Source: Archangiaceae bacterium | GTDB lineage: Bacteria; Myxococcota; Myxococcia; Myxococcales; Myxococcaceae | NCBI GenBank assembly: GCA_043750125.1 | Contig: JAYVCD010000422.1 | Coordinates: 1-33,043 of the forward strand | Length of the DNA stretch: 33,043 nt | Direction: 5' to 3' | Part shown: piece after piece, positions 785 to 17,707 of the stretch | Position numbering within the stretch: position 1 is the first letter of the stretch | Layout of the letters: each line of letters opens with the position of its first letter | Made by a program: the position numbers and the translations under genes | The notes under the pieces: model-generated | Databases searched by the model: none | Seen by the model: the letters and a program-made list of their open reading frames with translations, nothing else | What the model was told of the DNA's origin: nothing

Positions 785-799
785 TGCGTGACGCGCCGA

Positions 800-1138: not shown

Positions 1139-1170
1139 GTCAGTCTCTCTCCAGTCAGCGTGGGGTGGAG

Positions 1171-1998
1171 TCAGGGTTCGGAAATCTGAGCGCCCTTTCG
1201 CAGGTCCACATCGGCCTGCAAGGTGAGCTGTTCAATCCGGGCGCGGGTGAGGTCTTCGATGATCTGCGGGCGGGCGTCCTCGAACGTCACCGCGTTCTTC
1301 TCGCGGCGCTCGATCAGCTCGAGGATCCAGAACCGTCCCCCCGGCCCCCGGATGATCGGGCTCACCTGGCCCGGCGCCAGCGAGGCGACCACCCCGCGCC
1401 ATTGTTCGGGCAGCTGTTTCCAGCTGAGGAAGCCCAGTTCCCAGGGAGCGCCGGCGCCTTCGGGCAAGCCGGTAAATTGTCGTCGGGCCTCGCTTTCGAA
1501 TGAGGCGCCGCCTTGAAGCGCGCGCTGCACGGTCAGAATCTGCGCTTCGTCCCGCAGCAGAATCTGCCGCAGGTGAACCTCGGTGCGGATCAGCGCCGCG
1601 TTGTTCTCGAAGAACGCGCGGACCTGGGACGCAGAGGGCTCGGCCTTCTTTGCGATCTGGGTCCGATAGAATGCCTCGGCCAACGCGCGTCGCCGGGCCG
1701 CACCCAACAGCAGCTCGAGACGGGCGACCTCGTCCGCGGCAGGACCTTCGGGCTCCAGCCCCAGCTCGACCGACTTCTGCCGAACGAGCTCGTCGTGGAT
1801 CAGTGCCGCGATCACTGCCTTCCGGCGATCGGGAACGCTGGGCTCCCCTGCCCCATGAGCTGTCGGCTTGAGACCCAGCAGCACTTCAGCCTCGGTGATC
1901 GCCACTCCGTTCACCGTCGCCACTGCGCTGTTCTGCCGGCCCGGATTGCACGCGGACAACAATGCGATCGCGCCGAGGCATCGGAACCGGGCGTTCAA
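1171..1998 (-). CDS. PpiC/SurA-type peptidyl-prolyl isomerase lipoprotein
   Basis: TTG start at 1998 overlaps the upstream TGA (TTGA). Lipobox LSAC; VATVNGVAIT N-domain; parvulin-like VHLRQIL...GASFESEARR...LGF...GQVSPII. Confidence 0.85.
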   Translation of the reverse strand: MNARFRCLGAIALLSACNPGRQNSAVATVNGVAITEAEVLLGLKPTAHGAGEPSVPDRRKAVIAALIHDELVRQKSVELGLEPEGPAADEVARLELLLGAARRRALAEAFYRTQIAKKAEPSASQVRAFFENNAALIRTEVHLRQILLRDEAQILTVQRALQGGASFESEARRQFTGLPEGAGAPWELGFLSWKQLPEQWRGVVASLAPGQVSPIIRGPGGRFWILELIERREKNAVTFEDARPQIIEDLTRARIEQLTLQADVDLRKGAQISEP

Positions 1999-4931
1999 TG
2001 GCACGTCTTGCAGGACTCGACTTCGTCGCCGCTGAACGGGTTGGCCGGGGTGGGGTCGACGGTCATCACCGTCATGTGCGCGGTGGCCGCGTCCGAGTCG
2101 TGGCACCCACCGCAGGGCAGTCGGGCCGGCTTCGTCTTCCAGCTGCCACTGGTGGTGCCGTTGGCGTGGCAGACCTGACAGTTGCGCAGGTCCTCGGGGA
2201 AGGTGATGTCCCAGTTTCGGCCCGGCACCGGATCTCCGTTGGGATAGCCGACCGTGAGCAGGGGGAAGTCGAGGGTCGCGCCGGCGTGGACCGCGTGGAC
2301 CCGCCGCGAAATCGCCGCGGCGCCGCCCCACGAGCCGACCACGTTCGAGTTCTGGTTGTCGTGGCACGCGCCGCACTGATCCACCGCCGTCTTGTCGACG
2401 ATCTTGTTGTGACGGAAGAAGTCGAAGACGAAGCCTTTGTTCGTTTCGGGGCTCTGGTGACAGGTGTCGCAGTTGGCCGCCGGAGCGAGCTCTTCAGCCA
2501 GTTGCTTCACCTGGAAGGTCGTCTTCGCCACCGTCGGAGTGCGGTAGTTGGTGGGGACGATTCCTCCGCGATCTTTGAGCTCGATGCTCGCGATGTAGGT
2601 GCCCGGAGCGAGGTCGTCGACCGGGTCCAACTGGTACTGAATGCTGCCCGTCGTCCAGCTGACCTTCGGATCATTGGGAACCGTCGGCGATCCTCCGTCG
2701 AGGTTCCATTGCTTCGCCAGGTTGTTGGACGCGGTGTACCCCCCGAGGTTCTTCACCGTCGCGTCGTTGAAGATCGCGGTGTTCAGGGGTCCGGCGAGAA
2801 CCTGAATCGAGAAGAACTTCCCGAGATTCCGGCTGCGAATGGCGAGCCTCCCGCGGGTCTCGTCGAGGTACGCGATCGCCCGGGCTTTGAAGGGCGCGCT
2901 CGAGTTGAGCCAGGCGACGATTTCAGCCGGAGTCGCGGCGGTGCGGTCGACGAAGCCCGTCGCCGGCACGGCCAGCACGACGGTGGCGCGAAGCAGCGTC
3001 GCGGCGGTGTCGAATTCCCGCTTCAGGTCCTCGCCGTTGTCGGCGACCACGGTCATCGTGTTTCCCACTGCGCCCAGGTTGTAGGTGGGCTGGTCGAGGC
3101 CGAACAGCCGGGTGCGCGCGGCCAGGCCGAGCACCGGGTTGCGCCGAGCGCGGGGGCCGTGGACGAACAGCGCGGCCCCGGTGAATTTTCCGTCGCGGGG
3201 CGTGCAGTGATCGCCGCCGTCGAAGCCCAGGGGAGTGTTGGGAAGACAGCCTTCGGCGCCGTCGAGATCCTGAAGGACGGTGGTGTGATCGATGGGAAGA
3301 CCGTTTTCGCGAATGACCAGCGTGACCACCGGAGCCTCGCCCGAGACGTAGTACCCCCGGGTGGGAACGTTGAGGGTCAGGTCGGTCGTGAACTCCGGAA
3401 TGTTGCGCGGGTCGGCCCGGGTGAAGTCGTGGGCCTGGGTGACCGGGTTGATGACGTTCGGCACCGGAGTCCCACTGGGCGGGTGGCAAACGCCGCACGC
3501 GTTGTCGGTGGTGGCCATTCCGCCCGCGTGGTTCACGCCGGTCGCGAAGTTGGTCTCGTCGTGGCACGAGCCACAGGCTTTTCGGGACGGGACGTTTTTC
3601 CAGTTCGCCACCTGCGGCGTCGCGACGGGGTTCGGCTTGTCGTTGTGGCACTTGGTGCAGTTGTTGAGCACGGCCGGGAAAGACGCCTTCCACCACTCGA
3701 CCTTGGTGTTCATGTAGCCCCAGATGGCGTAGCTGCCGTTATCGGCCGCCTCGTTCACCAGCGTGGCCGGGTTGTCCCACAGAATGCCGTCGGCCCCGGG
3801 AATGCTCATCAGCTCGCCACCCGCGTGAATCTTGTGAATCATCGTGTCGAGGTCGAGCGAGGCGCCGCCGTGAGGGTCGATGTTCCCGGGAAGGTGGCAG
3901 GTGGCGCAGACCTCGACGGTGAGGCGATCGCCGCCGTGGGCGTGAAATTCCTGGCCGTGGCAGGTGCGACAGTTTCCGGTGTCGATGATTCGGCGGCTCT
4001 CGGTGACGATCGAGCCGTCGGGCACGAAGTCTAAGAACCCATCGGCGGTCGCCCCGCTGTGGCCGCCCACCATCACGGCGATGCGGTGAAGCCGATTCCG
4101 CTCGAACGCAATCGGCTTTCCTCCCACGCTGACGTTCGAGAGGTTGGTCGCGAAGGTGTAGACGTACGAGCCGTCGTTGTTGTCGACGAGGGCGCCGTTG
4201 CTCTCTTTGTACGCCTGGTAGGCCTGAGTTCCGTCCGGGTTTGGCCAGTTGCCTCCATCGGAACCGGTGACGGTCTGCAGTTGGTAGATGTACGCGACGA
4301 ACTTGTTGAACGCCTCTCCGGCATCGGAATCGGGGGGAACCAGCTTCACGATGTTGGCGCTGACGGTCTTGATCCCGAGCACCGGCTTGTTGGTCGCGCT
4401 GGCCACTTTGAAGCTGACGGTGACGATTCCGGTGGGGCTGGCCGCCGCCCCGGTGATTGTCATGTTGGCGAGGAATTTTCCGGTGCTGGACAGCGCGGCC
4501 TGGGTGAGGAAGTCGGTCCCGTGGAACTGGTCGACCCGGAAAGCGTCACCGGCGTTGGCCCCGTTCATTCCATTGGTTCCGTTCGTGCCGTTGGCAATGT
4601 TGATCACCGTGCCGTCGGCGCAGCTGATGGTGCGGCCTCCGTCGAGGTTGTCTTTGATCGAGCACGAGCTGCCACCGGGGAGGTCGGCGATCGTTCCGTC
4701 ACTGCAGCTGACGATTCGCCCGCCGTCGCTCTTGGTGGTGATCGAGCACGAGGTGCCCGCGTCGCCGTTGGTTCCGTTGCGCCCGTTGGACAAGGTGACC
4801 TTCGTCCCGTCGGTGCACGAGACAGTCACGGTTCCGTCCCCGTTGTCCTGGGTCGAGCACGAGCTGCCTTTCTCTCCGACGGGCCCCTGACAACCCGCCA
4901 GGACGACACACAGCACGATGTTGATTTTCAG
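1995..4931 (-). CDS. OmcA/MtrC-family decaheme c-type cytochrome lipoprotein (~978 aa)
   Basis: Ten CxxCH motifs in two groups of five (CRTCH, CATCH, CTKCH, CGSCH, CGVCH; CDTCH, CGACH, CQVCH, CGGCH, C-terminal CKTCH). Family-type motifs HGGDR and MIHKIH; lipobox LAGC. Start uncertain (CTG 4931 after GGAG, or TTG 4979). Confidence 0.92.
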   Translation of the reverse strand: MKINIVLCVVLAGCQGPVGEKGSSCSTQDNGDGTVTVSCTDGTKVTLSNGRNGTNGDAGTSCSITTKSDGGRIVSCSDGTIADLPGGSSCSIKDNLDGGRTISCADGTVINIANGTNGTNGMNGANAGDAFRVDQFHGTDFLTQAALSSTGKFLANMTITGAAASPTGIVTVSFKVASATNKPVLGIKTVSANIVKLVPPDSDAGEAFNKFVAYIYQLQTVTGSDGGNWPNPDGTQAYQAYKESNGALVDNNDGSYVYTFATNLSNVSVGGKPIAFERNRLHRIAVMVGGHSGATADGFLDFVPDGSIVTESRRIIDTGNCRTCHGQEFHAHGGDRLTVEVCATCHLPGNIDPHGGASLDLDTMIHKIHAGGELMSIPGADGILWDNPATLVNEAADNGSYAIWGYMNTKVEWWKASFPAVLNNCTKCHNDKPNPVATPQVANWKNVPSRKACGSCHDETNFATGVNHAGGMATTDNACGVCHPPSGTPVPNVINPVTQAHDFTRADPRNIPEFTTDLTLNVPTRGYYVSGEAPVVTLVIRENGLPIDHTTVLQDLDGAEGCLPNTPLGFDGGDHCTPRDGKFTGAALFVHGPRARRNPVLGLAARTRLFGLDQPTYNLGAVGNTMTVVADNGEDLKREFDTAATLLRATVVLAVPATGFVDRTAATPAEIVAWLNSSAPFKARAIAYLDETRGRLAIRSRNLGKFFSIQVLAGPLNTAIFNDATVKNLGGYTASNNLAKQWNLDGGSPTVPNDPKVSWTTGSIQYQLDPVDDLAPGTYIASIELKDRGGIVPTNYRTPTVAKTTFQVKQLAEELAPAANCDTCHQSPETNKGFVFDFFRHNKIVDKTAVDQCGACHDNQNSNVVGSWGGAAAISRRVHAVHAGATLDFPLLTVGYPNGDPVPGRNWDITFPEDLRNCQVCHANGTTSGSWKTKPARLPCGGCHDSDAATAHMTVMTVDPTPANPFSGDEVESCKTCH
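4551..4865 (-). repeat. Three intragenic SCS-x-DG-x-SCxDGT repeats plus G-x-N triplet linkers
   Basis: SSCSTQDNGDGTVTVSCTDGT / TSCSITTKSDGGRIVSCSDGT / SSCSIKDNLDGGRTISCADGT, with NGRNGTNG and NGTNGTNGMNGAN linkers. Confidence 0.85.
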
Positions 4932-5034
4932 GGACGCTCCGCCTTCCGTTGCCAGCTGTTTTTCGACTGCCCATGCCAAGCCATTGCGCCACAGGCAAAG
5001 GCGCCCCACTGAGACTGTTCTGCGCGCTACAGGA

Positions 5035-5382
5035 TCAGCTGACCATCGAGGCGCAGTCGAGGCAGTGGTGGGCCTCGGGCATCGCGCGCAGACGGTCGGC
5101 GCCGATCTTCTTGTTGCAACTTCCGCAGCGGCCCCAGGTGCCTTGGTCCAGACGGAACAGCGCGGCGTCGATCGCATCGACCTCATTGCGCTCGCGGTCG
5201 GAGAGGGTGACCAGCACTTCGGCGATCTCCTCCCCTGCGGTGCGCTCTCGGGACTCACCGTCGTGGCGAAGCTGCGCGCCGTCATTCGCGTTGTGGCGCT
5301 GGCTGCGAACGAGCACCGTGCGCCGGGCCACGAGCTTTGAGCGGGCTTCTGTCGCGTGCTGGGTTTCGGTCGTGGTGGACAT
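5035..5382 (-). CDS. TraR/DksA-family C4 zinc-finger protein
   Basis: ATG 5382. Coiled-coil N-terminus, then IDAALFRLDQGTWGRCGSC...RLRAMPEAHHCLDC. Confidence 0.88.
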   Translation of the reverse strand: MSTTTETQHATEARSKLVARRTVLVRSQRHNANDGAQLRHDGESRERTAGEEIAEVLVTLSDRERNEVDAIDAALFRLDQGTWGRCGSCNKKIGADRLRAMPEAHHCLDCASMVS

Positions 5383-5394
5383 GCCGAGGCGCTG

Positions 5395-5410
5395 TGCAAT
5401 CCGGGGCCCA
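5395..5410 (-). promoter_or_regulatory. Putative sigma54 promoter for the dksA-like gene
   Basis: Minus strand TGGGCCCCGGATTGCA with exact GG-N10-GC spacing and a TTGCA -12 box. Confidence 0.6.
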
Positions 5411-5443
5411 CATCGAGGGCGCCGACATTTCAACTCTGAGGGC

Positions 5444-5485
5444 TCCACGGACTGCGCCTCGGCTTCCGGGGTGCAGCTTCTGCAC
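5444..5485. promoter_or_regulatory. Tandem putative enhancer (EBP) sites between divergent promoters
   Basis: GTGCA-GCTTC-TGCAC (5471-5485), plus degenerate TCCA-CGGAC-TGCG (5444-5456) offset by 28 bp. Confidence 0.6.
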
Positions 5486-5518
5486 CGGGACGTTGCCGCC
5501 TCTCTTCTGAGAGAGAAA

Positions 5519-5534
5519 TGGCGCGCGGGTTGCT
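5519..5534 (+). promoter_or_regulatory. Putative sigma54 promoter for usp
   Basis: TGGCGCG-CGGG-TTGCT, a close match to TGGCACG-N4-TTGC(W). Confidence 0.72.
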
Positions 5535-5547
5535 CGGGGTGGGTTTC

Positions 5548-6810
5548 ATGACCATCGTCTGCGCAACCCGGTTTTCCGAAGAGTCGTCTTTCGCTGCGAA
5601 GGTCGCCGCCGAGCTGGCGCGGAAGCAAAAGCAGGCATTGTGGCTGGTGCACGTGCTCCCGGGTCGGGTGATTCGATCGTGGGGGGACAAGGTCGAGGCG
5701 GCGGCCACGGCGGCGCTGCTGGCCGAGGCCCAGGTGCTGCGCGAATCGGGGCTCGAGGTTCAGACCGTGGTGCTGAACGGGAAGGTCGATCACGAAATGT
5801 CCCGGTTCTGCGCTGCGAAGGGAGCCTCCCTGCTGGTCGTCGGAGACACCACCCAGAACACGCGCGGGCCCATCGCCGGGACGCTCGACAGGCTCGCGTA
5901 CAGCGTCGAGACGCCGCTGTTGGTGGTGCGAGATCCCCGGCCGTTCATCGCCTGGGCCGAAGGAAAGGCTCCGCTCAAAGTGATGCTGGCGATCGATCAC
6001 ACCTCGAGCTCGGCGGTCGCGCGAGATTGGATCTGCGCTCTGGCCCAGTACGGCGCGCTGGACCTGGTCGCGACGCACGTCTGGTGGCCGCGCGAAGAGT
6101 ACGAGCGGCGGGGACTGCCCTTTCCGCCTGCGGAAGAAGGGCACAAGTCACTGGCGAACTTGATGGAGGCCGAGACGGCGGCGGCGCTCACCGGCCTGCC
6201 GAACAACGTAAAAGTGCGGGTCCACCTCGAGATCGGAGTGCAACAGATTGGCGAACAGTTGCTCGCGCTGGCCAACGACGAGCAGATCGACATGTTCGTG
6301 CTGGGAACGCACCGCCGCCGCGCGCTGGGTCGGCTGTGGTCGATTTCCCATCATGTGATGGCGCTCGCGCCGATGTCGGTGGCGTGCATTCCGTCGGCGT
6401 TGGCCGTACCCGATGTCTCGGCGGCACCTGCATTCCGGACGGCGCTGGCGGCCACCAACTTCTCAGAGGCGTCGAACCGCGCGCTCACCTGCGCGATCGC
6501 GGTCGTCGGTGACGGCACCGTGCACGTGGTTCATGTGAGCAAAGAGCCGTTCAGTCCCGAGTCGGAAAAGGTTCTCTTGAAGAAGCTGACTGCAGTGCTG
6601 CCTCCGGACGCTGAACGGCGGGCGCGGCTGATGGTGCACGTGCTTCACGGCGAGGTCGCCGAAGAGTTGATCAAGGCCAATGATCGCTTCGGAATCGACG
6701 TGGTCTGCCTGGGCCTGAAGGCTGAGACCTTGCTCAAAAGCGCGGTGGTCGCCGAGGTGCTCAAGCGCTCAGGACGACCGGTGATGTTCGCCGCGCCACT
6801 CAAGGCGTGA
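5548..6810 (+). CDS. Universal stress protein, three tandem USP domains
   Basis: ATG 5548. MTIVCATRFS, VMLAIDHTSSS and LAATNFSEAS domain starts; FVLGTHRRRALGRL and SGRPVM USP motifs. Confidence 0.9.
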   Translation: MTIVCATRFSEESSFAAKVAAELARKQKQALWLVHVLPGRVIRSWGDKVEAAATAALLAEAQVLRESGLEVQTVVLNGKVDHEMSRFCAAKGASLLVVGDTTQNTRGPIAGTLDRLAYSVETPLLVVRDPRPFIAWAEGKAPLKVMLAIDHTSSSAVARDWICALAQYGALDLVATHVWWPREEYERRGLPFPPAEEGHKSLANLMEAETAAALTGLPNNVKVRVHLEIGVQQIGEQLLALANDEQIDMFVLGTHRRRALGRLWSISHHVMALAPMSVACIPSALAVPDVSAAPAFRTALAATNFSEASNRALTCAIAVVGDGTVHVVHVSKEPFSPESEKVLLKKLTAVLPPDAERRARLMVHVLHGEVAEELIKANDRFGIDVVCLGLKAETLLKSAVVAEVLKRSGRPVMFAAPLKA

Positions 6811-7128
6811 GCGCTGGGGGCTTGAGATCTCGAGGAGCGGGAAGCCCACTGAGGAAGTCTATCAGGAACCCGTCTCGCCTCATTCCCCCAACAAAGCTCT
6901 CGACGAAATGCCGTTGACCTTGCTGAGCAACGGAAAACAAATCCGCACCGCTGCACCCACTCGGAACCGGCCGTTCGACAGCACATGAGGATGAGCGAAT
7001 CGAACCGCGCTGCCGAGCCGAACCGCTGAGGAAACTTTCGGTCAAACACCGACAACCTCAAAGCGCCAGGAAGCCCGCTCAGAGTTCGATCTGAACTGGG
7101 ACGCGCGAACCGACGACACGTCCCTGGT

Positions 7129-7323
7129 CGCAACGAGCTGCGCGGGCTGCTGATCGAAGGCCGAGACGCCGACGAGACCTGGAACGAGGACCACTGCGAA
7201 TACCTGGTCAATCATCCCGAGGGCGTCGTCTTTCTGGCGGGCCGCACATTCCACATCTGCCGCGCGCACGCGCTGGCGCGGACCACGCTGCGCGGTAGGT
7301 CACACGGCACAACGATTGCGTAG
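7129..7323 (+). pseudogene. Start-less fragment of a hypothetical protein gene
   Basis: High-GC3 frame RNELRGLLIEGRDADETWNEDHCEYLVNHPEGVVFLAGRTFHICRAHALAR with no credible start; the tail runs into the ppdK promoter. Confidence 0.4.
7305..7320 (+). promoter_or_regulatory. Putative sigma54 promoter for ppdK
   Basis: CGGCAC-AACGA-TTGCG with exact -24/-12 spacing. Confidence 0.7.
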
Positions 7324-7337
7324 AGCGGCTGAGAGAA

Positions 7338-10031
7338 ATGAAAACCACAGCCCGCCTGACCCTCGAACCCCAGGTCGTTGCGTTCCACCGGGGACGCGCA
7401 AATCAGAAGGCGCTGCTGGGAGGCAAGGGCGCGAACCTCTGTGAAATGATGCGCCTGGGACTTCCGATTCCACCCGGGTTCATCATCACCACCGCCGCCT
7501 GCAACGCGTTCCTGGTGAAGAAGCGCTTGGGTCCCGAAGTGTGGAAGCAAGCGCTGAAGGCTGTCAGCGCCCTCGAGGCCAGTACGGGCAAGAAGCTGGG
7601 AAACCCTTCCAACCCGTTGTTCCTCTCGTGCCGCTCGGGAGCCAAATTCTCGATGCCCGGAATGATGGACACGATCCTCAACCTCGGGATGAACGACGCG
7701 GTGTGCGCGGGTCTGCTCGCCGCAGGCTGGGATGCGCGCTTCGTGCACGACATCTACCGCCGCCTGTTGCAGATGTTTGGGGGAGTGGTGCTGGGAATCG
7801 AGCCGGCCGCATTCGAGAAAGTGCTGGCTCGAGAGCGCGCAGGCTCGCCCCTCGATTCGTCCCTCGGGTCCGAAGCGCTCGAGCGGTGCATCGCCGAGTT
7901 TCATCAACTGATCGCGGCCGGGGGCCGAACCTTTCCTCAAGACCCGCGCGAGCAGCTGAAGCTCGCCACCGAGGCCGTCTTCACCTCGTGGAACGGGAAG
8001 CGCGCCGTCGACTATCGCAACGCCTCGGGAATTCCCCACGACCTGGGAACCGCCGTCACGCTTCAAACGATGGTGTTCGGCAACAAAGGTTCCTGCTCGG
8101 CCACCGGAGTGCTGACCACCCGCAACGTCACCACCGGTCAAGACACCCTCGAAGGGGACTTCTTGATGCACGCCCAGGGCGAGGACGTGGTCTCTGGGAC
8201 CCGCGCCACATTGCCCATGGCCTCGATGGCCCAGCTGCTGCCCGAGCAGTTCGAGCAACTGAAGGCGCACTGCCGACTGCTCGAAAAACATTTCCGTGAC
8301 GTTCAGGACGTCGAGTTCACCGTCGAAGAATCGCAGCTCTGGGTGTTGCAGACCCGCGACGCCAAGCGCACCGCGCGCGCCGCCGTTGTGTTCGCGGTCG
8401 ACTTCGTCAAAGAAAAACGAATCACCCGGCAAGAAGCGGTGCTGCGCGTCAAACCCGAGCACGTCGACTTCTTCCTCCACCCTCAGTTCGAGCCGGTCGC
8501 GCGCGCGGCGGCGGTCGTCCTCGCGACCGGCCTGAACGTCAGCCCCGGCGCCGCGAGTGGTGAAATCGTCTTCGACCCCACCCGCGCTGAAGAACGGGCG
8601 ATCAAAGACAAGAAGGCCGTGATCCTCGTCCGTGCCGAGACGAAGCCGGACGACGTTCACGGGCTGCTTGCGTCCCAGGGGGTCGTCACCTCTCGAGGGG
8701 GTCGCACCAGTCACGCCGCCCTGGTGGCGCGCCAATTCGGCAAGCCCGCGGTGGTGGGCGCCTCGGCGCTGCTGATCGACGAAGAGCAAAGGTGTTTCAC
8801 CGTCAACGGGAAGACGTTTCACGAGGGCGAGATTCTCTCGATCGACGGCACCAGTGGAGAAGTCTTCCTCGGCGCGCTTCCCACCGTGATTCCCCAAATC
8901 ACCGACCCGGCGCTCAAGACGGTGCTCGGCTGGGCCGACGGGTTTCGCAAGCTTCAGGTCTGGGCGAACGCCGATTCGCCCGCCGAGGCTTCGCTGGCAG
9001 TGCAGTTGGGAGCCGAAGGCATCGGGCTGTGTCGCACCGAGCACATGTTCTTCGCCTCGGACCGCCTCCCGGTGATGCAGCGGTTGATCCTCGCCACCGA
9101 CGACCCGGCTCGCACCGCCGCGCTCGAGCAGTTGCTGCCGATGCAGCGGGCAGACTTCGAAGGGCTGTTCCGCGCGATGGAAGGTCGGCCGGTCACGATT
9201 CGCCTGCTCGACCCTCCGCTGCACGAGTTTCTGCCGGCCCACGACGCGCTGCTGCAGGAAGTGACCCAGCTGCAGACCCGAATTCTCTTCGCGGCCCCGG
9301 CGGTCGAACGGCTGGCGCTGCAGCACAAGCTGACCGTGAAGCAAGCGATGCTGGCCGCCGTGGATGCGCTTCGCGAGCAGAACCCGATGCTCGGCCTGCG
9401 CGGAGTTCGCCTCGGCATTCACCTGCCCGCTCTGGTGGTGATGCAAGTGCGCGCGATTTTCGAGGCCGCCTGCGCCTGCAAGCGCGACGGGCTGAAGGTC
9501 GCTCCGAAGGTGATGATCCCCCTCATCGCCCACAAGAACGAGCTGGCCGTCGAACGGTCACTGCTCGAAGCCGAGGCGAAGCGGGTGATGAAAGAGCAGG
9601 GGCTGAAGTTGTCGTACCAGTTCGGAACGATGATCGAAGTCCCGCGCGCCGCGCTCACCGCCGGAGAGCTCGCCGAGCTCGCAGAGTTCTTCTCGTTCGG
9701 AACCAATGACCTGACCCAGACCACCTTCGGCATCTCACGCGACGACGCCGAAACCGGCTTCCTGCTCGAGTACCTGCGGAAAAAAATTCTTCCCGAGAAC
9801 CCCTTCGCCACGCTCGACCAGGCGGGGGTCGGCGAGCTGATGCGACTTGCCGTTCAGAAAGGCCGCGCGACCCGAAAAGACCTCGAAGTCGGAATTTGCG
9901 GCGAACACGGGGGAGACCCGAAGACCATCCACTTCTGTCATCGGCTGGGAATGAACTACGTCAGCTGCTCGCCCTACCGAGTCCCGATCGCCCGCCTCGC
10001 CGCGGCCCACGCTGCGCTGACGAAGGCTTGA
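7338..10031 (+). CDS. ppdK: Pyruvate, phosphate dikinase
   Basis: GGKGANL, RSGAKFSMPGMMDTILNLG, GGRTSHAALVAR (phospho-His), GIGLCRTEHMF, EQNPMLGLRG, FSFGTNDLTQ, GICGEHGGDP, YVSCSPYRVPIARLAAA. Confidence 0.97.
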   Translation: MKTTARLTLEPQVVAFHRGRANQKALLGGKGANLCEMMRLGLPIPPGFIITTAACNAFLVKKRLGPEVWKQALKAVSALEASTGKKLGNPSNPLFLSCRSGAKFSMPGMMDTILNLGMNDAVCAGLLAAGWDARFVHDIYRRLLQMFGGVVLGIEPAAFEKVLARERAGSPLDSSLGSEALERCIAEFHQLIAAGGRTFPQDPREQLKLATEAVFTSWNGKRAVDYRNASGIPHDLGTAVTLQTMVFGNKGSCSATGVLTTRNVTTGQDTLEGDFLMHAQGEDVVSGTRATLPMASMAQLLPEQFEQLKAHCRLLEKHFRDVQDVEFTVEESQLWVLQTRDAKRTARAAVVFAVDFVKEKRITRQEAVLRVKPEHVDFFLHPQFEPVARAAAVVLATGLNVSPGAASGEIVFDPTRAEERAIKDKKAVILVRAETKPDDVHGLLASQGVVTSRGGRTSHAALVARQFGKPAVVGASALLIDEEQRCFTVNGKTFHEGEILSIDGTSGEVFLGALPTVIPQITDPALKTVLGWADGFRKLQVWANADSPAEASLAVQLGAEGIGLCRTEHMFFASDRLPVMQRLILATDDPARTAALEQLLPMQRADFEGLFRAMEGRPVTIRLLDPPLHEFLPAHDALLQEVTQLQTRILFAAPAVERLALQHKLTVKQAMLAAVDALREQNPMLGLRGVRLGIHLPALVVMQVRAIFEAACACKRDGLKVAPKVMIPLIAHKNELAVERSLLEAEAKRVMKEQGLKLSYQFGTMIEVPRAALTAGELAELAEFFSFGTNDLTQTTFGISRDDAETGFLLEYLRKKILPENPFATLDQAGVGELMRLAVQKGRATRKDLEVGICGEHGGDPKTIHFCHRLGMNYVSCSPYRVPIARLAAAHAALTKA

Positions 10032-10059
10032 GGCGAGCCGGTCGGCGCGCGGCCTGGCC

Positions 10060-10450
10060 TCAAAGACGAAGCGGCGAAGCGCGTGCAGCCACCGCGGGCA
10101 CCACCAGTTCGCGTTTCCGAGCAGGCGCATCGCCGACGACCTTCCCCGTCACGACCAGCTCGTAAGTGCCCGCGGGGAGATCGTTGGTCAGGGGCAAAGA
10201 GACCCGGTCGAGGTCGCGGTCTGCCCCTTGAAGACGCCCTTCGCATCGACCCCGGCCATTTTTCGAAGCCGGCGGGCAGGGACGTGCCGATCGCCACCGG
10301 GACTCCGGCAGACAAAGCCTCTTTCACTTTCGCAACGTCGAACGGGGAGATGATCGAGAAACCGCCGATGCGCGCCTTGGCCGCGTCGGTCAGTGGGGGA
10401 TTCTCTGCGCACTGTTTGTCCGAGTAGGGGACCGTGGACAACCAGAGCGT
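10060..10450 (-). pseudogene. Frameshifted remnant resembling a papain-like (C1) peptidase
   Basis: Pieces in three frames: VPYSDKQCAENP..AKARIGGFSII...VKEALSAGVPVAIG..LPAGFEK / KGVFKG / PAGTYELVVTGKV. No start and no catalytic Cys/His region. Confidence 0.45.
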
Positions 10451-10482
10451 CGAGAGCCAGGGTCTGGGCCGAAGCCCGCGCA

Positions 10483-10524
10483 GTGCAGGAGTTGCACCCC
10501 GGACCCCACCCTGCAAATCGGCGC
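10483..10524. promoter_or_regulatory. Tandem putative enhancer sites upstream of the CBS operon
   Basis: GTGCA-GGAGT-TGCAC (10483-10497), plus a TGCA half-site at 10512 offset by 28 bp. Confidence 0.6.
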
Positions 10525-10560
10525 GGCTTCGACCGGCCGCGGCTCCCTGATGCGCACTAC

Positions 10561-10576
10561 TGGCACGTGAGGTGAA
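10561..10576 (+). promoter_or_regulatory. Putative sigma54 promoter for the CBS genes
   Basis: TGGCACG-TGAG-GTGAA: perfect -24 box, variant -12 (GA instead of GC). Confidence 0.55.
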
Positions 10577-10614
10577 GTACCGGTGAAGCAGGGGACGTTT
10601 CTCCTGGGGGCAAA

Positions 10615-11073
10615 ATGAAAGCGATCAACGTGATGACGTTCAAGGTGGCCACGATTGCGGCGGACGCGCAGATCGAGACCGCCCACACCTTGATGCTTCG
10701 ACTCGGAGTCCGCCATTTGCCGGTGATTTCCAACGGCAAGCTGGTGGGGATCCTCTCGGACCGTGACGTGCTGCTGTGCGCTGGAAAAACCGAGGACGGT
10801 TTCGTCTACCCGCCAAGCCTCGTCGCCCAGAGCATGTCGGTGGACTGCGTCACAGCCCAGCTGCACACCCCGATCGCCGACCTGGCCAAGCTGATGCTGG
10901 CTCACAAGATCGACGCCGTGCCAATCGTATTGGGCGACAAAGAGCTGCTCGGGCTGGTCACCTCGACCGACCTGCTGCGCGTCGTAGGCGTCCTGCCGGG
11001 TTGTTTGTCGATGCGCTGTCACCTGCTCGAGACGGGACAATCCGGGGGCCCCGAATGCACGGTGACGCCGTGA
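10615..11073 (+). CDS. Stand-alone CBS-pair protein
   Basis: VRHLPVISNGKLVGILSDRD and IDAVPIV...LLGLVTSTDLL. Confidence 0.9.
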   Translation: MKAINVMTFKVATIAADAQIETAHTLMLRLGVRHLPVISNGKLVGILSDRDVLLCAGKTEDGFVYPPSLVAQSMSVDCVTAQLHTPIADLAKLMLAHKIDAVPIVLGDKELLGLVTSTDLLRVVGVLPGCLSMRCHLLETGQSGGPECTVTP

Positions 11074-11534
11074 CTGTCGCGACGATCATGATCGCCCCGG
11101 TCGCGACCGTTCAAGCCGACCTGCCGCTCTACGACCTGATCTGCCTGCTGGTGGACCTGAACGTCAGCGGTTTTCCGGTGGTGGACGCCCAGGGCCACGC
11201 GATCGGCATGGTCTCGAAGTCCGACTTGATCTGGGAAGATCACGATTGGGCCGAGGCCCGTCAGACAGTGCTGTCCTGGGGAAAAATGGCCGGCCGCAAG
11301 GTGGCCCAGGACATCGAGCTGATCGACGAACGGAACCTCGGCAGCCGAACCGTCGCCGACGTGATGACGTCCGGCTCGCTTTCGGTGCTCCCTACCGACA
11401 GCATCAAGACCGCTTCCCGGCTGATGATCGCCAACCACGTCCATCGCCTGTCGGTGGTCGATGAAAACGCAGTGCTGGTGGGAATCGTGACGACCTTCGA
11501 CATCGCCCGCTGGGTCGCCCAGACCCCACCCTAA
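11070..11534 (+). CDS. Stand-alone CBS-pair protein
   Basis: GTG overlapping the upstream TGA (alternative ATG 11055). VSGFPVVD...IGMVSKSDL and VHRLSVVDE..LVGIVTTFDI. Confidence 0.88.
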   Translation: MTVATIMIAPVATVQADLPLYDLICLLVDLNVSGFPVVDAQGHAIGMVSKSDLIWEDHDWAEARQTVLSWGKMAGRKVAQDIELIDERNLGSRTVADVMTSGSLSVLPTDSIKTASRLMIANHVHRLSVVDENAVLVGIVTTFDIARWVAQTPP

Positions 11535-11570
11535 GCGCTGCGCTTCGTTGTGCTAGAGCCCCCGGGCCCC

Positions 11571-12692
11571 ATGCAAGCCCCCGCCGTGCCCAAGATTCTA
11601 GTCGTCGATGACAACGTCGAGAATCGAGCCCTCGCCAGGGCCACGCTCGACGACGAGGGCTACGAGGTCATTCTCGCGTCCGGAGGTGAGGAAGGGGTTC
11701 GTGCCTTCGAAGCACAGCGGCCCGACTGCGTGCTGCTCGACGTTCGGATGCCGGGCACCGATGGCTTCGCCGTCTGCTCGCAGATCCGCGCCCTGCCCGG
11801 AGGCGATGAGACATCGATTCTGTTCCTCACCGCCCTGCGGGACCTCGACACCTTCGACCAGGCGTTGCGGGCGGGCGGCGATGACTTCCTCACCAAGCCG
11901 GTGCGACCGACCGAGCTGGTTTTACGGGTGCAGGCCGCGCTGAAGGTCCGCCGAATGAGCGGTGAGCTGCGCTCAAACTTCGAGCTCTTGCGCCGGCAGC
12001 GCGATGACTTGATGCGGTTGCAACTTCAGAAGGAACAGCTGACCGCGTTCGTGATTCACGATCTGAAAAACCCCGTCAATGCGATGGACCTCCACGCCCA
12101 GGTCCTGCTCAACGAACGCGACCTCTCGACGCGCGCCCGCGAGTCCGCCCGGCACATTCGAGACGAAGCGCGAACGCTGTTGCGGCTGCTGCTCAACCTG
12201 CTCGACATCAGCAAGAGCGAAGAAGGCCAGCTGGTCGCGCGGTCCCAGAAGCTCGATCTCGAGACGTTGGTCGGCGACGTCTTCGAAGCCTTCGAGCTCA
12301 AGGCGCGAACCAATGGGGTCAGCCTCGCCCGTCAGCTCACCGACCATTCTCTGACCGCCGACCCCGACCTGCTGCGCCGCATCATCGAAAACCTGCTCGA
12401 TAACGCGATTCGCCACGCGCCGCCGGGAACCCGGGTGTGGTTGATCTCGGTCGCCAACGAGAAGTTCTTCGAGCTGCAAGTGGCCGATTCGGGCCCGGGA
12501 ATCGCACCCGAGCTGCGCCAGAGGATCTTCGAGCGCTACGTGCAGCTCGAGGCCGGCGAACGCACGGCGGCCCGAACCGGCCGGGGGCTGGGCCTGGCGT
12601 TCTGCAAGCGGGCGGTCGAAGCCCACGGAGGAACCATCGAGGTCGACAATGCAAACCCGGGCGCCGTTTTCGTGGTGAGACTGCCGCAATGA
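11571..12692 (+). CDS. Hybrid histidine kinase (REC-HisKA-HATPase)
   Basis: [19 protein letters not shown] receiver; HDLKNP H-box; [21 protein letters not shown]. Confidence 0.93.
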
Positions 12693-14650
12693 CGGACTTT
12701 GCCGGCCTCGATCACCCGAGCCTCAGTGACGAGATCTTCCGAAAGCTGCTCGACGCTGCTCCCGACGCGGTGGTCGTCGTCGACGAGCGCGGGCGAATCG
12801 TCCTCGTCAATCTTCAGACCGAAGGGCTCTTCGGCTACCCCCGGGCTGAGCTGATTGGAAAGCCGGTCGAAGTCTTGATCCCCGAGCGGTTCCGGCCCGG
12901 CCACGTCGGTCACCGCACCGCGTTCGCCACCGCGCCCAAAGCCCGCCCGATGGGTTCGGGCCTCTCGCTCTTCGGGCGCAAACGCGACGGCTCGGAATTT
13001 CCGATCGAGATCAGCTTGAGCCCACTCACCACCGGGGGGCGCCGCTTGTCCTCGGCGAGCATCCGCGACGTGACCGATCGCAAACAGAGCGAGCTGAAGA
13101 TCCGCCGGGTGCAGGAACATCTGCTCAGCGCGATCGAGAGCATCCCGGGGGCGTTCGCGATCTTCGATGCCCTCGACAAGCTGGTGTTGTGCAACAGCAC
13201 TGTGCGCCAACTGCTCGGAAGAAACCTCGCGGGCGAAATCATCGGGCGGTCTTTCGAAGAGCTGATCGACGTAAACCTCGCGGCGGGTACCTTCGACCTG
13301 CGGGAAGGCACGGCGGCCGAGCTGCGGGACAAGCTCGTGGGCTACCACCGCGCGCCGGTCGGAGCCCTCGAGGTTCGCACCCGCCAGGGCCGCAACCTGC
13401 GGCTGACCGATCGCCGCACCGCCGAAAGCGGCTCGGTGATGACCATCTGGGACGTGACCGACGAAGTGATTCACGAGGAAGAATTGCGCGGAGCCCGAGC
13501 CCTGGCCGAAGCCGCCAACTCGGCCAAGAGCGAGTTTCTCGCCTCGATGAGCCACGAGCTGCGCACCCCGCTGAACGCGATTCTGGGGTTTGCCCAGCTG
13601 CTCCAGCGCGACAAGAAGGCACCCCTTCCCGACCGTCACCGCGAGCGGATCGAGCACGTCCTCAAGGGCGGCGAGCACCTGCTGCGGCTGATCGACGAAG
13701 TGCTCGACCTCTCGCGCATTGAAGCGGGCAGCGTCTCGGTCTCGCCCGAAGAGGTCAACCTGCGCGGGGTGCTGCCCGAAGTGAAGTCGACGCTCGACCC
13801 GATGGCGGCTCGAGGTGAGATCGAATTGATCGTCGCTGAGCTCCCGGCGAATCTTCCCGGGGTACTCGCCGACCGCACCCGGCTGAAGCAGATCTTGATG
13901 AACTACGGCTCGAACGCGATCAAGTACGGCCGGAAGCGAGGCACCGTGACTTTCCGCGCGGTCGCCAAAGACGGCTTCGTCCGGGTGAGCGTGATCGACG
14001 ACGGAATCGGAATCGCCGACGAGAAGCAGGAAAAGATTTTTCAGCCCTTTCAGCGCGCCGGCCAGGAAACCGGGCCGATCGAGGGCACCGGCATCGGCCT
14101 GGCCATCACCCGCCGGCTCGCCGAGCTGATGGGCGGCACCACCGGGTTTTCCAGCATCGAGAACAAGGGCTCCGAGTTCTGGATCGAGCTGCCGATTCAC
14201 CCCGGGACCCCGGAGCTCCCGGTCGTTCCCCTCGCGTCCATTGCGAGCGTGGGCAGCAAGCTCGCGGGCAGCGAAGGCCCCCGATTTTCAATCGTCTACA
14301 TCGAGGACAACCCGTCCAGCATCGCCTTCATGAAAGACCTGCTGGGCGATTTCGAGCGCGTCGATCTCGCCACCGCGCCCACCGCGGAAATCGGAATCGA
14401 GCTCGTCCGGGCCCGGCGCGCCGACGTGGTGATCATGGACATCAACCTTCCGGGGATGAGCGGGTTCGAAGCGACCCGTCGCCTGCGCGAATGGCCCGAG
14501 ACCGCGGCGATTCCCGTCATCGCGCTGAGCGCCGCCGCGATGGTGCGCGACGCGACCCGGGTCGATGACGCTGGCTTCTATCGCTACCTGACCAAGCCAG
14601 TGAAGGTCGACGAGCTGGCCCGGGTGCTCGAAGAGCTGCTCACCCGCTGA
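12689..14650 (+). CDS. Cytoplasmic PAS-PAS hybrid histidine kinase with C-terminal receiver
   Basis: ATG 12689 overlaps the upstream stop (ATGA). PAS ending [16 protein letters not shown], second [32 protein letters not shown], then a receiver (IEDN, IMDINLP, LTKP). Confidence 0.93.
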
Positions 14651-14655
14651 AGGCT

Positions 14656-16035
14656 TTACTCCTCGGGCTTGCCGTCGTTGCCGATGCCGTACTGATTGAG
14701 CCGGTACTGAATCGTGCGCACGCTCACGTCCAACATCTCGGCCGCGCGGGCGGTCGAGCCTTCCGCCGCCTCGAGGGTCTTGATGATCGCAAACCGCTCG
14801 AGCTCGGCCAGCGTCGCTCCGGGAATCGCAATGCCCACCAGGCTCTCGGAAGTCGGCGCCGCGTAGGGCAGGTGGTCGGCGTCGATCAGCCGGTCCTCAC
14901 ACAGCACCACCGCCCGCTCGATTGCGTTCTCGAGCTCGCGCACGTTGCCTGGCCACCGATGGCTGCGCAGCTTGGTCCGGGCCCGGGCGGTGAAGCCTTC
15001 GACCTGCTTGTGATTCTCGAACGCGAAGCGGTTCAAGAAGTGTTCGGCCAGCACCAGCGTGTCACTGCCCCGCAGCCTCAAGGGCGGCATGTCGATGGTG
15101 ATGACATTGAGCCGATAGAACAGGTCCTCGCGAAATCGACCCGCCGCCACGTCGGCCTTCAGGTCGCGGTTGGTCGCCGCGAGGATCCGCACGTCGACCT
15201 TCACCAGCTCGTTTCCACCCACCCGCTCGAAGTTGCGCTCTTGCAGCACCGTCAACAGCTTGATCTGGGTCGAGGGGGAAATTTCGCCGATCTCGTCGAG
15301 GAAGAGCGTGCCTTCATTGGCCTGCTCGAACCGCCCCACCCGCTTGCGTTCGGCGCCGGTGAACGAGCCCTTCTCGTGACCGAACAGCTCGCTCTCGAGC
15401 AGGGTCTCGGCCAGCGAAGCGCAGTGCAGCGCGACGAACGGTTTGTCCGCGCGGTGGCTCAAGTGGTGAATCGCCCGCGCCAGCTCGCCTTTTCCCGTTC
15501 CACTCTGACCGGTGATCAACACCGTCGCTCTCGAGGCGGCGACCTGGCGCGCCAGCCGATAGACCTTCTGCATCGCAGTGCTGGTGCCGAGCAGACCCTT
15601 CAGACCTTCGTCGTGATTCTCGCGCGCCTGGCGACGGAAGTTCTCGTTGTCGAGCCGAAGGGTGCGGGTTTCGATCGCCCGCTCGACCGCCACCAGCAGA
15701 TCTTCGAACTCGACCGGCTTGGTGATGTAGTCCACCGCGCCTGCCCGCATCGCGGCCACTGCCGAACGCACCTCAGAGGCCGAGGTGACCACGATCACCG
15801 GCAACTCGGGGTCCCGCTGCTGCAGCTCTTTGAGCAGCCCCATTCCATTCATCCGCGGCATGTCGAGGTCCGTCACCACCAGGTCCGGGGGCAGCTCGAC
15901 GATGCGTTCCAGCGCCGTCACCCCGTCGACCGCCAGGTCCACTTCGTAGCCGCGGGCACCCAGCAGCTCGGACAGCGCCTTGCGGGTCGCCCCGTCGTCA
16001 TCGACCACCAGAACTCGTACCCCGGGCTGAGCCAT
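14656..16035 (-). CDS. NtrC/AtoC-family sigma54-dependent response regulator (REC-AAA+-Fis HTH)
   Basis: ATG 16035. VLVVDDD / VTDLDMP receiver; GQSGTGKG Walker [44 protein letters not shown]-terminal HTH. Confidence 0.95.
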
Positions 16036-16070
16036 AGGGCCGTTCGTCCCATGCCCGCCCCCCCGCTTGA

Positions 16071-16112
16071 AGAAGAAACTGCACCGAGGGGTCGACCGTG
16101 CAAACCGTGCAT
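16071..16112. promoter_or_regulatory. Tandem putative enhancer sites between the EBP gene and the SQR-like gene
   Basis: GTGCA-AACCG-TGCAT (16098-16112), plus AGAA-GAAAC-TGCAC (16071-16084) offset by 28 bp. Confidence 0.6.
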
Positions 16113-16135
16113 CCGCGTTCCCGGCCTTGAGCCGA

Positions 16136-16151
16136 TGGCACACCCCGTGCT
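16136..16151 (+). promoter_or_regulatory. Putative sigma54 promoter for the SQR-like gene
   Basis: TGGCAC-ACCCC-GTGCT with exact spacing. Confidence 0.72.
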
Positions 16152-16168
16152 CACCGCTCGCCCGTCAG

Positions 16169-17194
16169 ATGAGCAAGAAACGCATCGTCGTTCTGGGATC
16201 GAACTTCGCGGGCTTTACCGCCGCAGTTTCCCTCAAGTCTCAGGTCGGCTCGCTTCACGACGTGACGGTGATCTCGCGCCTGGCTCAATTTGTCTTTCAC
16301 CCCTCGTTGGTCCGGCTTCCCCTCGGAGCCCGAACGGCGCAGCAGGCCCACTTCCCCGTCCACGGCCTGCTCGCCGAGCACGGAATCGCCTTTCGCAATG
16401 AAGCGGCCATTCGACTCGACCTCGAGGGCCGCAAAGTCATCACCGCCACCGCCGAGGAACGCTACGACTTCCTGGTGATCGCCACCGGGGCCCGCCCCAA
16501 TTACGCAGCGGTTCCCGGCCTGGGTCCGCGCGGGTATACCCATTCGATCGTCACTCTTCCCGAAGCCGAGCTCGCCCGCGACGCCTTCGAAGACTTCGTC
16601 CGCGCGCCGGGCCCGGTGGTGATTGGGGACGTGCAAGGCAGCCCCTGTCGCGCGCTGGGGTACGAGTTCCTGTTGAACCTGGCCCTCGCCCTCGACCGAC
16701 GCGGCTTGAGCAAGGCCGTTGCGCTCACCCACCTCACCTCGGGGCCGCCCATCGCGGCGGGCCCCTTCGAGGTCATTGCCCACGCCGCAGTGGCCGAGAT
16801 TGGTCCTGGCCAGATTGCTCTGGCCGACGGGCGGCGTCTTCCATTCGCGTTCTCGATGTTGCTGCCCTCGTTCCTCGGCGTCGACGTGGTGCGGGCGTGC
16901 GAGAAGATCACCGACGCGTCGGGCTTCGTGCGGATCAACGCCTTCCACCAGTCCCTCTCTTTTTCCGAGGTCTTCGCCGCCGGCGACGCCGCTTCAGCCC
17001 AGCCGCTCGAGAGGTCCGGCTACCTCGCAGAACAGTCAGCGCAGGCGGTGGCTCGGAACATCGCGGCCTGTCTTCGCGGTCAACCGATGGAACCCATTCC
17101 CGCTCTTCCCGCGACCGCGGGCGGCTGGCTCGACAGCGAAAGCGAAGCGGCCTGGGCCAAACACGCGTTCGAGCGCTATTTTCCCGCGGCCTGA
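16169..17194 (+). CDS. Sulfide:quinone oxidoreductase-like FAD-dependent oxidoreductase (shortened)
   Basis: KRIVVLGSNFAG, FVFHPSL, YDFLVIATG, GSPC...YEF, VFAAGD and a C-terminal WAKHAFERYF amphipathic helix. Confidence 0.8.
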   Translation: MSKKRIVVLGSNFAGFTAAVSLKSQVGSLHDVTVISRLAQFVFHPSLVRLPLGARTAQQAHFPVHGLLAEHGIAFRNEAAIRLDLEGRKVITATAEERYDFLVIATGARPNYAAVPGLGPRGYTHSIVTLPEAELARDAFEDFVRAPGPVVIGDVQGSPCRALGYEFLLNLALALDRRGLSKAVALTHLTSGPPIAAGPFEVIAHAAVAEIGPGQIALADGRRLPFAFSMLLPSFLGVDVVRACEKITDASGFVRINAFHQSLSFSEVFAAGDAASAQPLERSGYLAEQSAQAVARNIAACLRGQPMEPIPALPATAGGWLDSESEAAWAKHAFERYFPAA

Positions 17195-17202
17195 AGAGGC
17201 AC

Positions 17203-17218
17203 TGGTCGACCGCTTGCA
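17203..17218 (+). promoter_or_regulatory. Putative sigma54 promoter for the cytochrome gene
   Basis: TGGTCG-ACCGC-TTGCA with exact spacing, inside a 36-bp intergenic gap. Confidence 0.55.
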
Positions 17219-17230
17219 TTGCCGGGGTGG

Positions 17231-17707
17231 ATGAACTTTCGACCCGTGCTGCTCTGCTTGGGAATGGTGTGTCTGGCGAAGGCCCACGCGGGGGAGCCCA
17301 GGCCGAAGGCCTCCGAGCCGGTCGAAGGAACGGACAAGGTCCTTCCGACTCCGGACTACCTGCCTCCGCTGGCCCGCGCGGTCCTCCACAAGGCGATGCA
17401 GCGTCACGGGCGCGACCAGTCTCGCCTCGTGCTGGCGGTCACGTTGCTCCAGCGCAATCTGGTGAAGAGCATCGCCTCGGAAATCGCGGCCGAGCCCCGG
17501 CTGGTGCGGCCGTTGGGTGAGGGCCGAGACGAGCTCAACTCAGCGTTGCCCGAGCGCTTCTTCGTGCTCCAGGACTCGCTGCGGCTGCGGGCCAAAGAGC
17601 TGGCCCAGGCGGCCGAGAAGAAGGACGACGTGGGGTTGGCCCGGACCTTCGGGCAGCTGGTCGAGACGTGCGTCAGCTGCCACTCGGCCTACCTCGACCA
17701 ACCCTGA
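17231..17707 (+). CDS. Class II (c'-like, four-helix) cytochrome c
   Basis: Signal peptide ending AHA, helical body, single C-terminal CVSCH. Confidence 0.82.
   Translation: MNFRPVLLCLGMVCLAKAHAGEPRPKASEPVEGTDKVLPTPDYLPPLARAVLHKAMQRHGRDQSRLVLAVTLLQRNLVKSIASEIAAEPRLVRPLGEGRDELNSALPERFFVLQDSLRLRAKELAQAAEKKDDVGLARTFGQLVETCVSCHSAYLDQP

Follow-up and report, generated by a model that had tools for sequence, protein, structure and literature searches.

A predicted sigma54 enhancer regulon with NmpR-like logic and a putative haem-PAS sensor in an Archangiaceae bacterium

We analysed a 33,043-nt stretch of DNA, here called the window, which corresponds to contig JAYVCD010000422.1 (C422) of the Archangiaceae bacterium assembly GCA_043750125.1 (G000; 6.2 Mb, 89% complete). 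Between positions 5035 and 17707 lies an island of genes that appears to form a sigma54-dependent enhancer regulon together with its own activator and a sensor kinase cassette. Genes were called from open reading frame (ORF) lists and with a custom hexamer-scored caller, and domains were assigned with Pfam and NCBIfam. Comparisons draw on three genus mates of G000 (G004, G049 and G068), giving a genus sample of four genomes, and on loci fetched from genomes, which carry L numbers (L081 and L082 are contigs C67 and C29 of G000, and L116 belongs to G049).

The island begins on the minus strand with a predicted target, a TraR/DksA-type C4 zinc-finger gene of 115 aa (5035..5382; PF01258, E 8.6e-7). 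Divergent from it on the plus strand is the gene for a triple-domain universal stress protein (USP) of 420 aa (5548..6810; PF00582 in three stretches, E 3e-38), followed on the same strand by that for pyruvate, phosphate dikinase (PPDK; 7338..10031; TIGR01828 at 1170 bits, above cut-off). A plus-strand unit of four genes, with gaps of -13, 36 and -4 nt, encodes two stand-alone CBS-pair proteins (10615..11073 and 11055..11534, both PF00571, the second a gene call with an uncertain start), a REC-HisKA-HATPase kinase (11571..12692) and a PAS-PAS-HisKA-HATPase-REC hybrid kinase (12689..14650). The sigma54 activator is encoded on the minus strand (14656..16035). Beyond it, on the plus strand, lie genes for an SQR-like flavoprotein below family cut-offs (16169..17194; PF07992; NF049943 at 76 bits against a cut-off of 525) and an exported cytochrome c'-like protein (17231..17707; PF01322 at 26.3 bits, just under the cut-off of 26.5).

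Six GG-N10-G(C/A) boxes named in an initial annotation of this DNA are all present. One, on the minus strand, precedes the TraR/DksA gene (5395..5410, read from 5410 to 5395; only its low end had been given). The other five, on the plus strand, stand before the USP gene (5519..5534), PPDK (7305..7320), the CBS-CBS-kinase-kinase unit (10561..10576, a pattern match with GA at -12), the SQR-like gene (16136..16151) and the cytochrome c'-like gene (17203..17218). The bare pattern occurs 381 times between 5395 and 17218 and therefore means little alone; what lends the six boxes credibility is their agreement with 9-11 of 12 sigma54 -24/-12 consensus positions (11 of 12 before the USP and SQR-like genes) and their place just before genes. 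The cytochrome c' box is kept in homologues, where such a box lies 14-15 nt before the ATG in four of the five relatives compared.

Three strong candidate enhancer sites, found by both pattern and matrix, lie in intergenic DNA at 5471..5485, 10483..10497 and 16098..16112, as first reported, and the window contains no other TGCA-N5-TGCA. We call GTGCA-N5-TGCAC a T-type site and GCGCA-N5-TGCGC a C-type site. At 5443..5457, 28 bp from the 5471 site, is a weaker partner in the 99.7th percentile of window positions under a matrix trained outside the window, and this pair is common to the two divergent promoters and placed almost symmetrically between them. The 16098 site has a half-site partner at 16070..16084 (99.8th percentile, outside-trained matrix); the activator gene is divergent from this pair, as annotated, with its ATG 35 nt from the half-site, and autoregulation through the latter is possible. 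At 10483 the half-site 28 bp downstream (10511..10525) scores poorly (-9.4), and an alternative copy at 10455..10469 does slightly better (-1.8); a near-identical arrangement recurs in the genus mate locus L116, which also has an SQR-like homologue with a site pair. Measured to the -24 G, the two site centres lie at 43 and 71 nt for the USP gene, 42 and 70 for the TraR/DksA gene, 45 and 73 for the CBS-kinase unit, and 33 and 61 for the SQR-like gene. The placement at 25-40 bp from a -24 box first proposed for all three palindromes fails at 10483, which ends 63 bp before its box and has only the 10511 half-site within that range.

Several tests indicate that the sites and their spacing are not random. 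The intergenic DNA of the window amounts to 3437 nt, and 0 of 5000 dinucleotide resamplings of it produced as many as three TGCA-N5-TGCA. Raw counts over G000 show no enrichment at spacer 5 (150, against 143-205 at spacers 2, 8, 11 and 14), a flatness that we attribute to codon periodicity, whereas intergenic GTGCA-N5-TGCAC occurs 8 times in the genome against 0-2 at the other 14 spacers. Among 20 offsets scored with a matrix built from sites outside the window, 28 has the highest summed partner score (9.4, against -24.7 for the runner-up). A second matrix, derived solely from other genomes, ranks 28 first of 24 offsets for 11 of 33 anchors genome-wide (one pair counted twice), all three window sites included, where about 1.4 would be expected. 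Both matrices recover the 28-bp offset, even though the 10511 partner itself is weak. A looser enrichment test near sigma54-like boxes counted 29 at spacer 5 and as many as 23 at spacer 11, and we discarded it in favour of the intergenic and offset tests. We place no weight on an apparent helical phasing of the proximal sites (R 0.62, p ~0.001, n 17), since promoters that diverge do not count as independent cases and some of the proximal sites had been assigned wrongly. A scan of the DNA for sigma70 promoters and terminators was empty or below chance.

The activator (PF00072, PF00158, PF02954; REC-AAA-HTH) has a phospho-site at Asp56 and a GSFTGA loop, and by domain criteria it is a predicted Group I bacterial enhancer-binding protein. 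Its closest named homologues are from metagenome-assembled genomes (MAGs) of Myxococcota, and it is related to NmpR of Myxococcus xanthus, which binds tandem GCGCA-N5-TGCGC with gaps of 14-15 nt preferred and requires the GCA-N5-TGC core and a sigma54 box (PMC11841059). In the Nmp pathway the protoglobin kinase NmpU, the dual-receiver protein NmpT and the REC-kinase NmpS act with NmpR (PMC11841059). From the family we fetched 20 protoglobin-kinase loci, two of which (L096 and L097) have the published Nmp gene order and agree with all published residue numbers checked (D54, V87, K104-P105, NmpS D59, NmpU H96/Q283); on these grounds they served as references for NmpR, NmpS and NmpU. The window activator is about 52% identical to NmpR, against 66-69% for G000's own NmpR copies, and falls outside the NmpR orthologue clade. 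An LG+G4 tree was built on 28 of 36 rows, after the removal of 8 that were long-branch or near-duplicate. It gives 100/100 support both to the activator clade and to that of NmpR, and 90/95 to their sister join, which received 86 in a quick tree and 98 in another. The recognition helices are nearly identical (SVRTIQYRL here, SVRKIQYRL in NmpR), which would explain the common GCA-N5-TGC core. A T in the half-sites occurs in 12 of 26 at cassette loci and in 0 of 16 at K-type NmpR loci.

The sensor cassette at 11571-14650, which the initial annotation missed, is the distinctive part of the island. In 13 distinct loci the PAS hybrid kinase adjoins the activator. Its first PAS domain (PAS1) matches FixL (E 2.5e-20) and FG214 (E 1.6e-17), and the best structural matches of its model (pLDDT 84) are to DosP. 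All 12 distinct rows in which PAS1 is present retain His72, and this residue falls in the same alignment column as the F-alpha histidine of FixL and the proximal His156 of FG214. PMC10468136 treats the F-alpha histidine as the primary haem determinant, and bioRxiv 10.64898/2026.03.15.711900 gives His156 as the assigned proximal haem ligand of FG214. We regard PAS1 as a putative haem sensor, which may bind haem and O2. The companion REC-HisKA-HATPase kinase has the architecture of NmpS but is not its orthologue: it is 30-35% identical to proteins in the NmpS position and 59-71% to cassette homologues, and its H-box differs. Activators of the window-type clade have a protoglobin-PAS kinase as well as cbb3 genes next to them in L008 and L009; in L012 it is the PAS kinase that adjoins cbb3 genes. 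This interchange with protoglobin kinases and these cbb3 neighbours form our main argument for oxygen as the input.

The distribution of the two systems suggests that one has taken the place of the other in this genus. The activator clade was found in at least 6 of 121 family genomes, including all four of the genus, and is otherwise seen in Polyangiaceae and other Myxococcota MAGs. Protoglobin (PF11563) was found in 100 of the 121 (a tally that includes G046), and in neither G000, at 89% completeness, nor its three genus mates. G004, G049 and G068 have the window-type activator, and no match to canonical NmpR, NmpS or NmpU was found in them. All three nevertheless have sites with a partner 28 bp away in front of USP, SQR-like and other genes, which is the best evidence that the window-type activator reads such sites. 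The NmpT dual receiver is absent from the island; no genome-wide search with an NmpT query was made.

G000 itself retains two canonical NmpR-clade proteins, on C67 and C29, that are respectively 69% and 66% identical to the L097 NmpR. The C67 gene adjoins a remnant of NmpS without a receiver (the match covers residues 146-365 only), and its own promoter has a C-type site with an offset of 29. In the surrounding DNA (L081:5176-7636) a CheB fragment precedes the NmpS remnant, and further upstream are CBS genes and the gene for a second sigma54 activator that lacks a receiver. On C29 (L082:1019-4452) the NmpR-clade gene stands beside an apparent integrase fragment and a HicAB-type pair recognised by eye, and the region looks mobile.

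The predicted regulon reaches beyond the island. In a matrix scan of G000 the top 17 matches are all intergenic and 16 of them prefer offset 28 over 29 or 30; at a score of 28 the same matrix gives 18 real matches and one in the reversed genome. The scan is partly circular, having been trained on G000 sites and boxes that include one mis-registered C67 site; the offset test with the other-genome matrix is free of both problems, and the pair on C158 lay outside the training set. The top 17 promoters are spread over contigs C2, C105, C118, C158, C418, C422 and C452. Downstream of the top sites are genes for USPs, CBS proteins, a zinc alcohol dehydrogenase, NnrS, hemerythrin and a copper nitrite reductase (NirK, above the TIGR02376 cut-off), and the C105 site precedes a fatty-acid desaturase gene, behind which lies a radical-SAM gene that was not typed as HemN. 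The island had been described as self-contained; its sensor and activator do lie inside it, while its predicted regulon, with USP, CBS, NnrS, hemerythrin and NirK genes, would extend to at least five other contigs. An 80-aa protein without a Pfam hit (L083:12413-12655) recurs near sites in the genus (homologues in L140, L145 and L146).

We propose, with a probability of roughly two in three, that the window encodes a sigma54 enhancer regulon with NmpR-like logic, run by a sister activator and a haem-PAS sensor, and that the cassette took over from the protoglobin-based NmpRSTU pathway in this genus. Haem in PAS1 of the hybrid kinase would sense oxygen. By analogy with NmpU-NmpS-NmpR, the signal would probably travel by way of the second, REC-gated kinase before it reaches Asp56 of the activator, and the receiver of the hybrid kinase could act as an NmpT-like sink. 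Phosphorylated dimers would bind two G(T/C)GCA-N5-TGC(A/G)C sites whose sequence and 28-bp spacing come from the statistics above, oligomerise, and open sigma54 promoters 30-100 bp away. Window targets would be the USP, CBS, TraR/DksA and SQR-like genes, as well as the kinase operon itself, which would amount to positive feedback; those on other contigs would be the NnrS, hemerythrin, alcohol dehydrogenase, desaturase, radical-SAM and NirK genes.

A number of observations weigh against this proposal. The column of the FixL distal arginine (R220, located through the R220A chain 1y28) holds Leu92 in PAS1, and the FG214 distal histidine position holds glycine. The PAS1 subfamily is common in unrelated kinases, with 19 other genomes matching the first PAS only, and in one MAG the cassette kinase has no PAS1 (L005:6983-8551). 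In the LG+G4 tree the sister join of the two activator clades is unstarred at 90/95, and the recognition helices of the C67 and C29 proteins are almost the same as that of the window activator. An exact T-type site with a strict box occurs in 4 of 121 family genomes, that is, in only 3 of the 120 others and none in the genus; an exact C-type scan gave 41 of 121 with many control hits, and since such scans are too strict and too noisy we draw no map from activator to motif. Site pairs serve four of the promoters, but within 200 bp of the PPDK (7305) and cytochrome c' (17203) boxes the best-scoring sites reach only 3.5 and 0.1, so that neither box has a good one; of 13 other genomes, 9 have a core site upstream of the PPDK homologue. 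The promoter of the cbb3-linked copper ATPase has overlapping divergent sigma54 boxes in G000 and G004, yet one must go about 720 bp, past the next gene, to find the closest site pair, an arrangement conserved in both genomes. In L129:993-1740 and L117:716-1457 this pair lies behind a DsbD_2 gene and may be a distal enhancer, which is suggestive only. Finally, G109 and G028 have both the cassette and protoglobin, so replacement of the protoglobin pathway is not universal.

Three other explanations deserve consideration. The regulon and activator could be as described and the input something other than oxygen (nitric oxide, carbon monoxide, redox state or haem supply, or a PAS1 with no haem at all), in which case the genes would serve a nitrosative or energy-stress programme. 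NnrS, NirK, hemerythrin and the cytochrome c'-like gene among the targets would suit such a programme, as would the missing distal arginine, the loss of PAS1 in L005 and Met88 of PAS1, which is invariant; FG214, the closest solved relative, is a redox switch. We nonetheless consider it unlikely, given that activators of the same clade are paired with protoglobin kinases and cbb3 oxidase genes and that the gene set overlaps the hypoxia-induced NmpR set. It is less probable still that the G000 sites are read mainly by the canonical NmpR copies on C67 or C29, or by all three proteins, with the window activator a passenger. The identity of these copies to the L097 NmpR and their almost identical helix speak for this reading; against it are the receiver-less NmpS remnant beside the C67 gene, the protoglobin missing from a genome that is 89% complete, the C-type site and offset of 29 kept at the C67 promoter, and the 28-bp pairs in the three genus mates in which NmpR was not found.

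That GC-rich DNA and codon periodicity produced the palindromes by chance is an idea to which we attach next to no weight. Raw spacer-5 counts equal to those at 2, 8, 11 and 14 and the abundance of minimal boxes in the region speak for it, and loose pattern searches in G004, G068 and G109 showed no excess over reversed controls. It is effectively refuted by the 5000 resamplings and by the offset test with the other-genome matrix, and the intergenic enrichment, the conservation in relatives and the coherence of the targets also oppose it. Returning to the regulon with a haem-PAS input, we note that the observations of the initial annotation are partly confirmed and its interpretation is partly supported: tandem palindromic enhancers and, most likely, low oxygen survive, and its comparator, the mycobacterial DosR regulon, gives way to NmpR.

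The same logic may extend to denitrification. In the 700 nt upstream of nosZ, a core site with a downstream sigma54-like box is present in 12 of 27 family loci, against 1-3 at five control spacers, and upstream of nirK in 5 of 24, against 0 in controls. Of the 30 and 29 loci fetched, those of G000 and G049, three from G046 and a further three whose upstream DNA was too short were set aside before counting; the related genomes are not independent, and most carry canonical NmpR-type sites. An NmpR-type site and a sigma54 box are thus often, though not always, present upstream of the NosZ genes of L116:2430-4780 (G049) and L185-L214. A literature search, largely at the level of listings and with most subscription papers outside its reach, returned no account of the cassette or of NmpR control of nosZ or nirK.

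The promoters of G000 also point to unusually short leaders. At 411 sigma54-like boxes, ORF-opening ATGs peak 14, 15 and 16 nt from the -12 C (22, 11 and 7 cases, against 1, 3 and 1 in a shifted control), which makes 40 of 411 boxes against 5. A Shine-Dalgarno-like word precedes 1 of 31 genes at such boxes and 712 of 3027 others. In the window the distance from the -12 C to the ATG is 14 nt for the TraR/DksA gene, 15 for the USP gene, 19 for PPDK, 40 for the CBS-kinase unit, 19 for the SQR-like gene and 14 for the cytochrome c'-like gene. Sigma54 transcription usually starts about 12 nt after the -12 C, so the leaders would be 2-7 nt long at five of the six boxes. Many sigma54 targets, in the window those with starts at 5382, 5548, 7338, 16169 and 17231, look near-leaderless. 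A leaderless pexR from a sigmaA promoter is mentioned in the available part of PMC12754779, and leaderless mRNAs are not linked to sigma54 in that of PMC3616915. Taken together, these patterns allow a broader proposal, which we put forward tentatively and rate somewhat below an even chance. In it, the NmpR family would act across Myxococcota as a modular master switch for low oxygen, and in one lineage its protoglobin sensor would have given way to a haem-PAS hybrid kinase. Denitrification genes (among them those for clade II nitrous-oxide reductase and copper nitrite reductase) would answer directly to sigma54 enhancers and not to control of the FNR/DNR type, and many messages would be leaderless.

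Other features of the DNA can be noted briefly. Behind the TraR/DksA gene, at 2-5009 on the minus strand, lies a block with an OmcA/MtrC-family multihaem cytochrome (TIGR03507 above cut-off), a peptidyl-prolyl isomerase, a small cytochrome c and an unannotated gene; it starts 25 bp behind that gene and may be transcribed from the 5410 promoter. The 530-bp gap before PPDK contains about 70 open codons with no in-frame start (7100-7310), possibly a gene remnant, and tblastx of the gap against G000 and the fetched loci found no homologue. We considered a horizontal origin for the island; it is unsupported because its genes have a GC content at third codon positions of 0.80-0.88, in line with a median of 0.83 for the genome.

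Among known systems, mycobacterial DosRST resembles the island in its USP- and CBS-rich gene content and in a probable haem-based low-oxygen input. DosR is a NarL/LuxR-type regulator that acts at sigma70-family promoters with GAF-haem kinases, and the two systems have no component, sigma factor or motif in common; no GAF or LuxR domain was matched in the 21 window proteins searched. We therefore rejected DosR as comparator in favour of the published NmpR regulon, with its core motif, tandem sites, CBS and USP targets and hypoxic induction. The likeness to FixL, DosP and FG214 is confined to the sensor, a PAS fold with an F-alpha histidine, and even there window PAS1 differs in its distal residues, lacking the FixL arginine and the FG214 histidine. 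FixL signals through FixJ-FixK, whereas the output here would be a sigma54 activator reached through a second kinase.

The closest system is NmpRSTU. NmpR controls CBS, USP, cbb3, HemN and hemerythrin genes, with mxan_4236 induced 6.5-fold in hypoxia by reporter, and its regulon has been paralleled with mycobacterial hypoxia USPs (PMC11841059). Homologues of NmpRSTU and their horizontal exchange are described in PMC6211767, in the available part of which no PAS-based form is seen. According to McAllister et al., the Nmp targets in Anaeromyxobacter are unknown. The island resembles NmpRSTU in its Group I sigma54 activator of a sister clade, its REC-HisKA-CA kinase, sites before its own kinase genes, the GCA-N5-TGC core in three of three strong window sites, tandem sites within about 100 bp of the box, and CBS, USP and hemerythrin targets. 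Its proximal sites were first called unusually promoter-proximal, which holds relative to textbook enhancers and not relative to loci with the NmpR gene order, where the distance is 28-80 nt (51 in L097) against 33-45 nt here. It differs in the shift of the site to GTGCA/TGCAC, in a gap of 13 nt (offset 28) rather than 14-15 (offset 29-30, and 30 in the NmpR-order loci), in a PAS-PAS-HK-REC protein in place of protoglobin NmpU and dual-REC NmpT, in a REC-kinase that is not an NmpS orthologue, and in predicted targets that include NirK and NnrS here and NosZ in relatives. The window system would work like NmpR but stand outside NmpRSTU, from which it differs in its activator clade, its sensor, the orthology of its REC-kinase and the gap between its sites. 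The concept has already been published, and the system does not represent a new kind. What it adds to a regulon reported in 2025 from a single species is a sister activator paired with another sensor, and it suggests a testable explanation of how nitrous-oxide reductase and NirK are turned on in soil myxobacteria. Set beside NmpRSTU, it would show cleanly how one sensor can be exchanged for another while the DNA code stays nearly constant.

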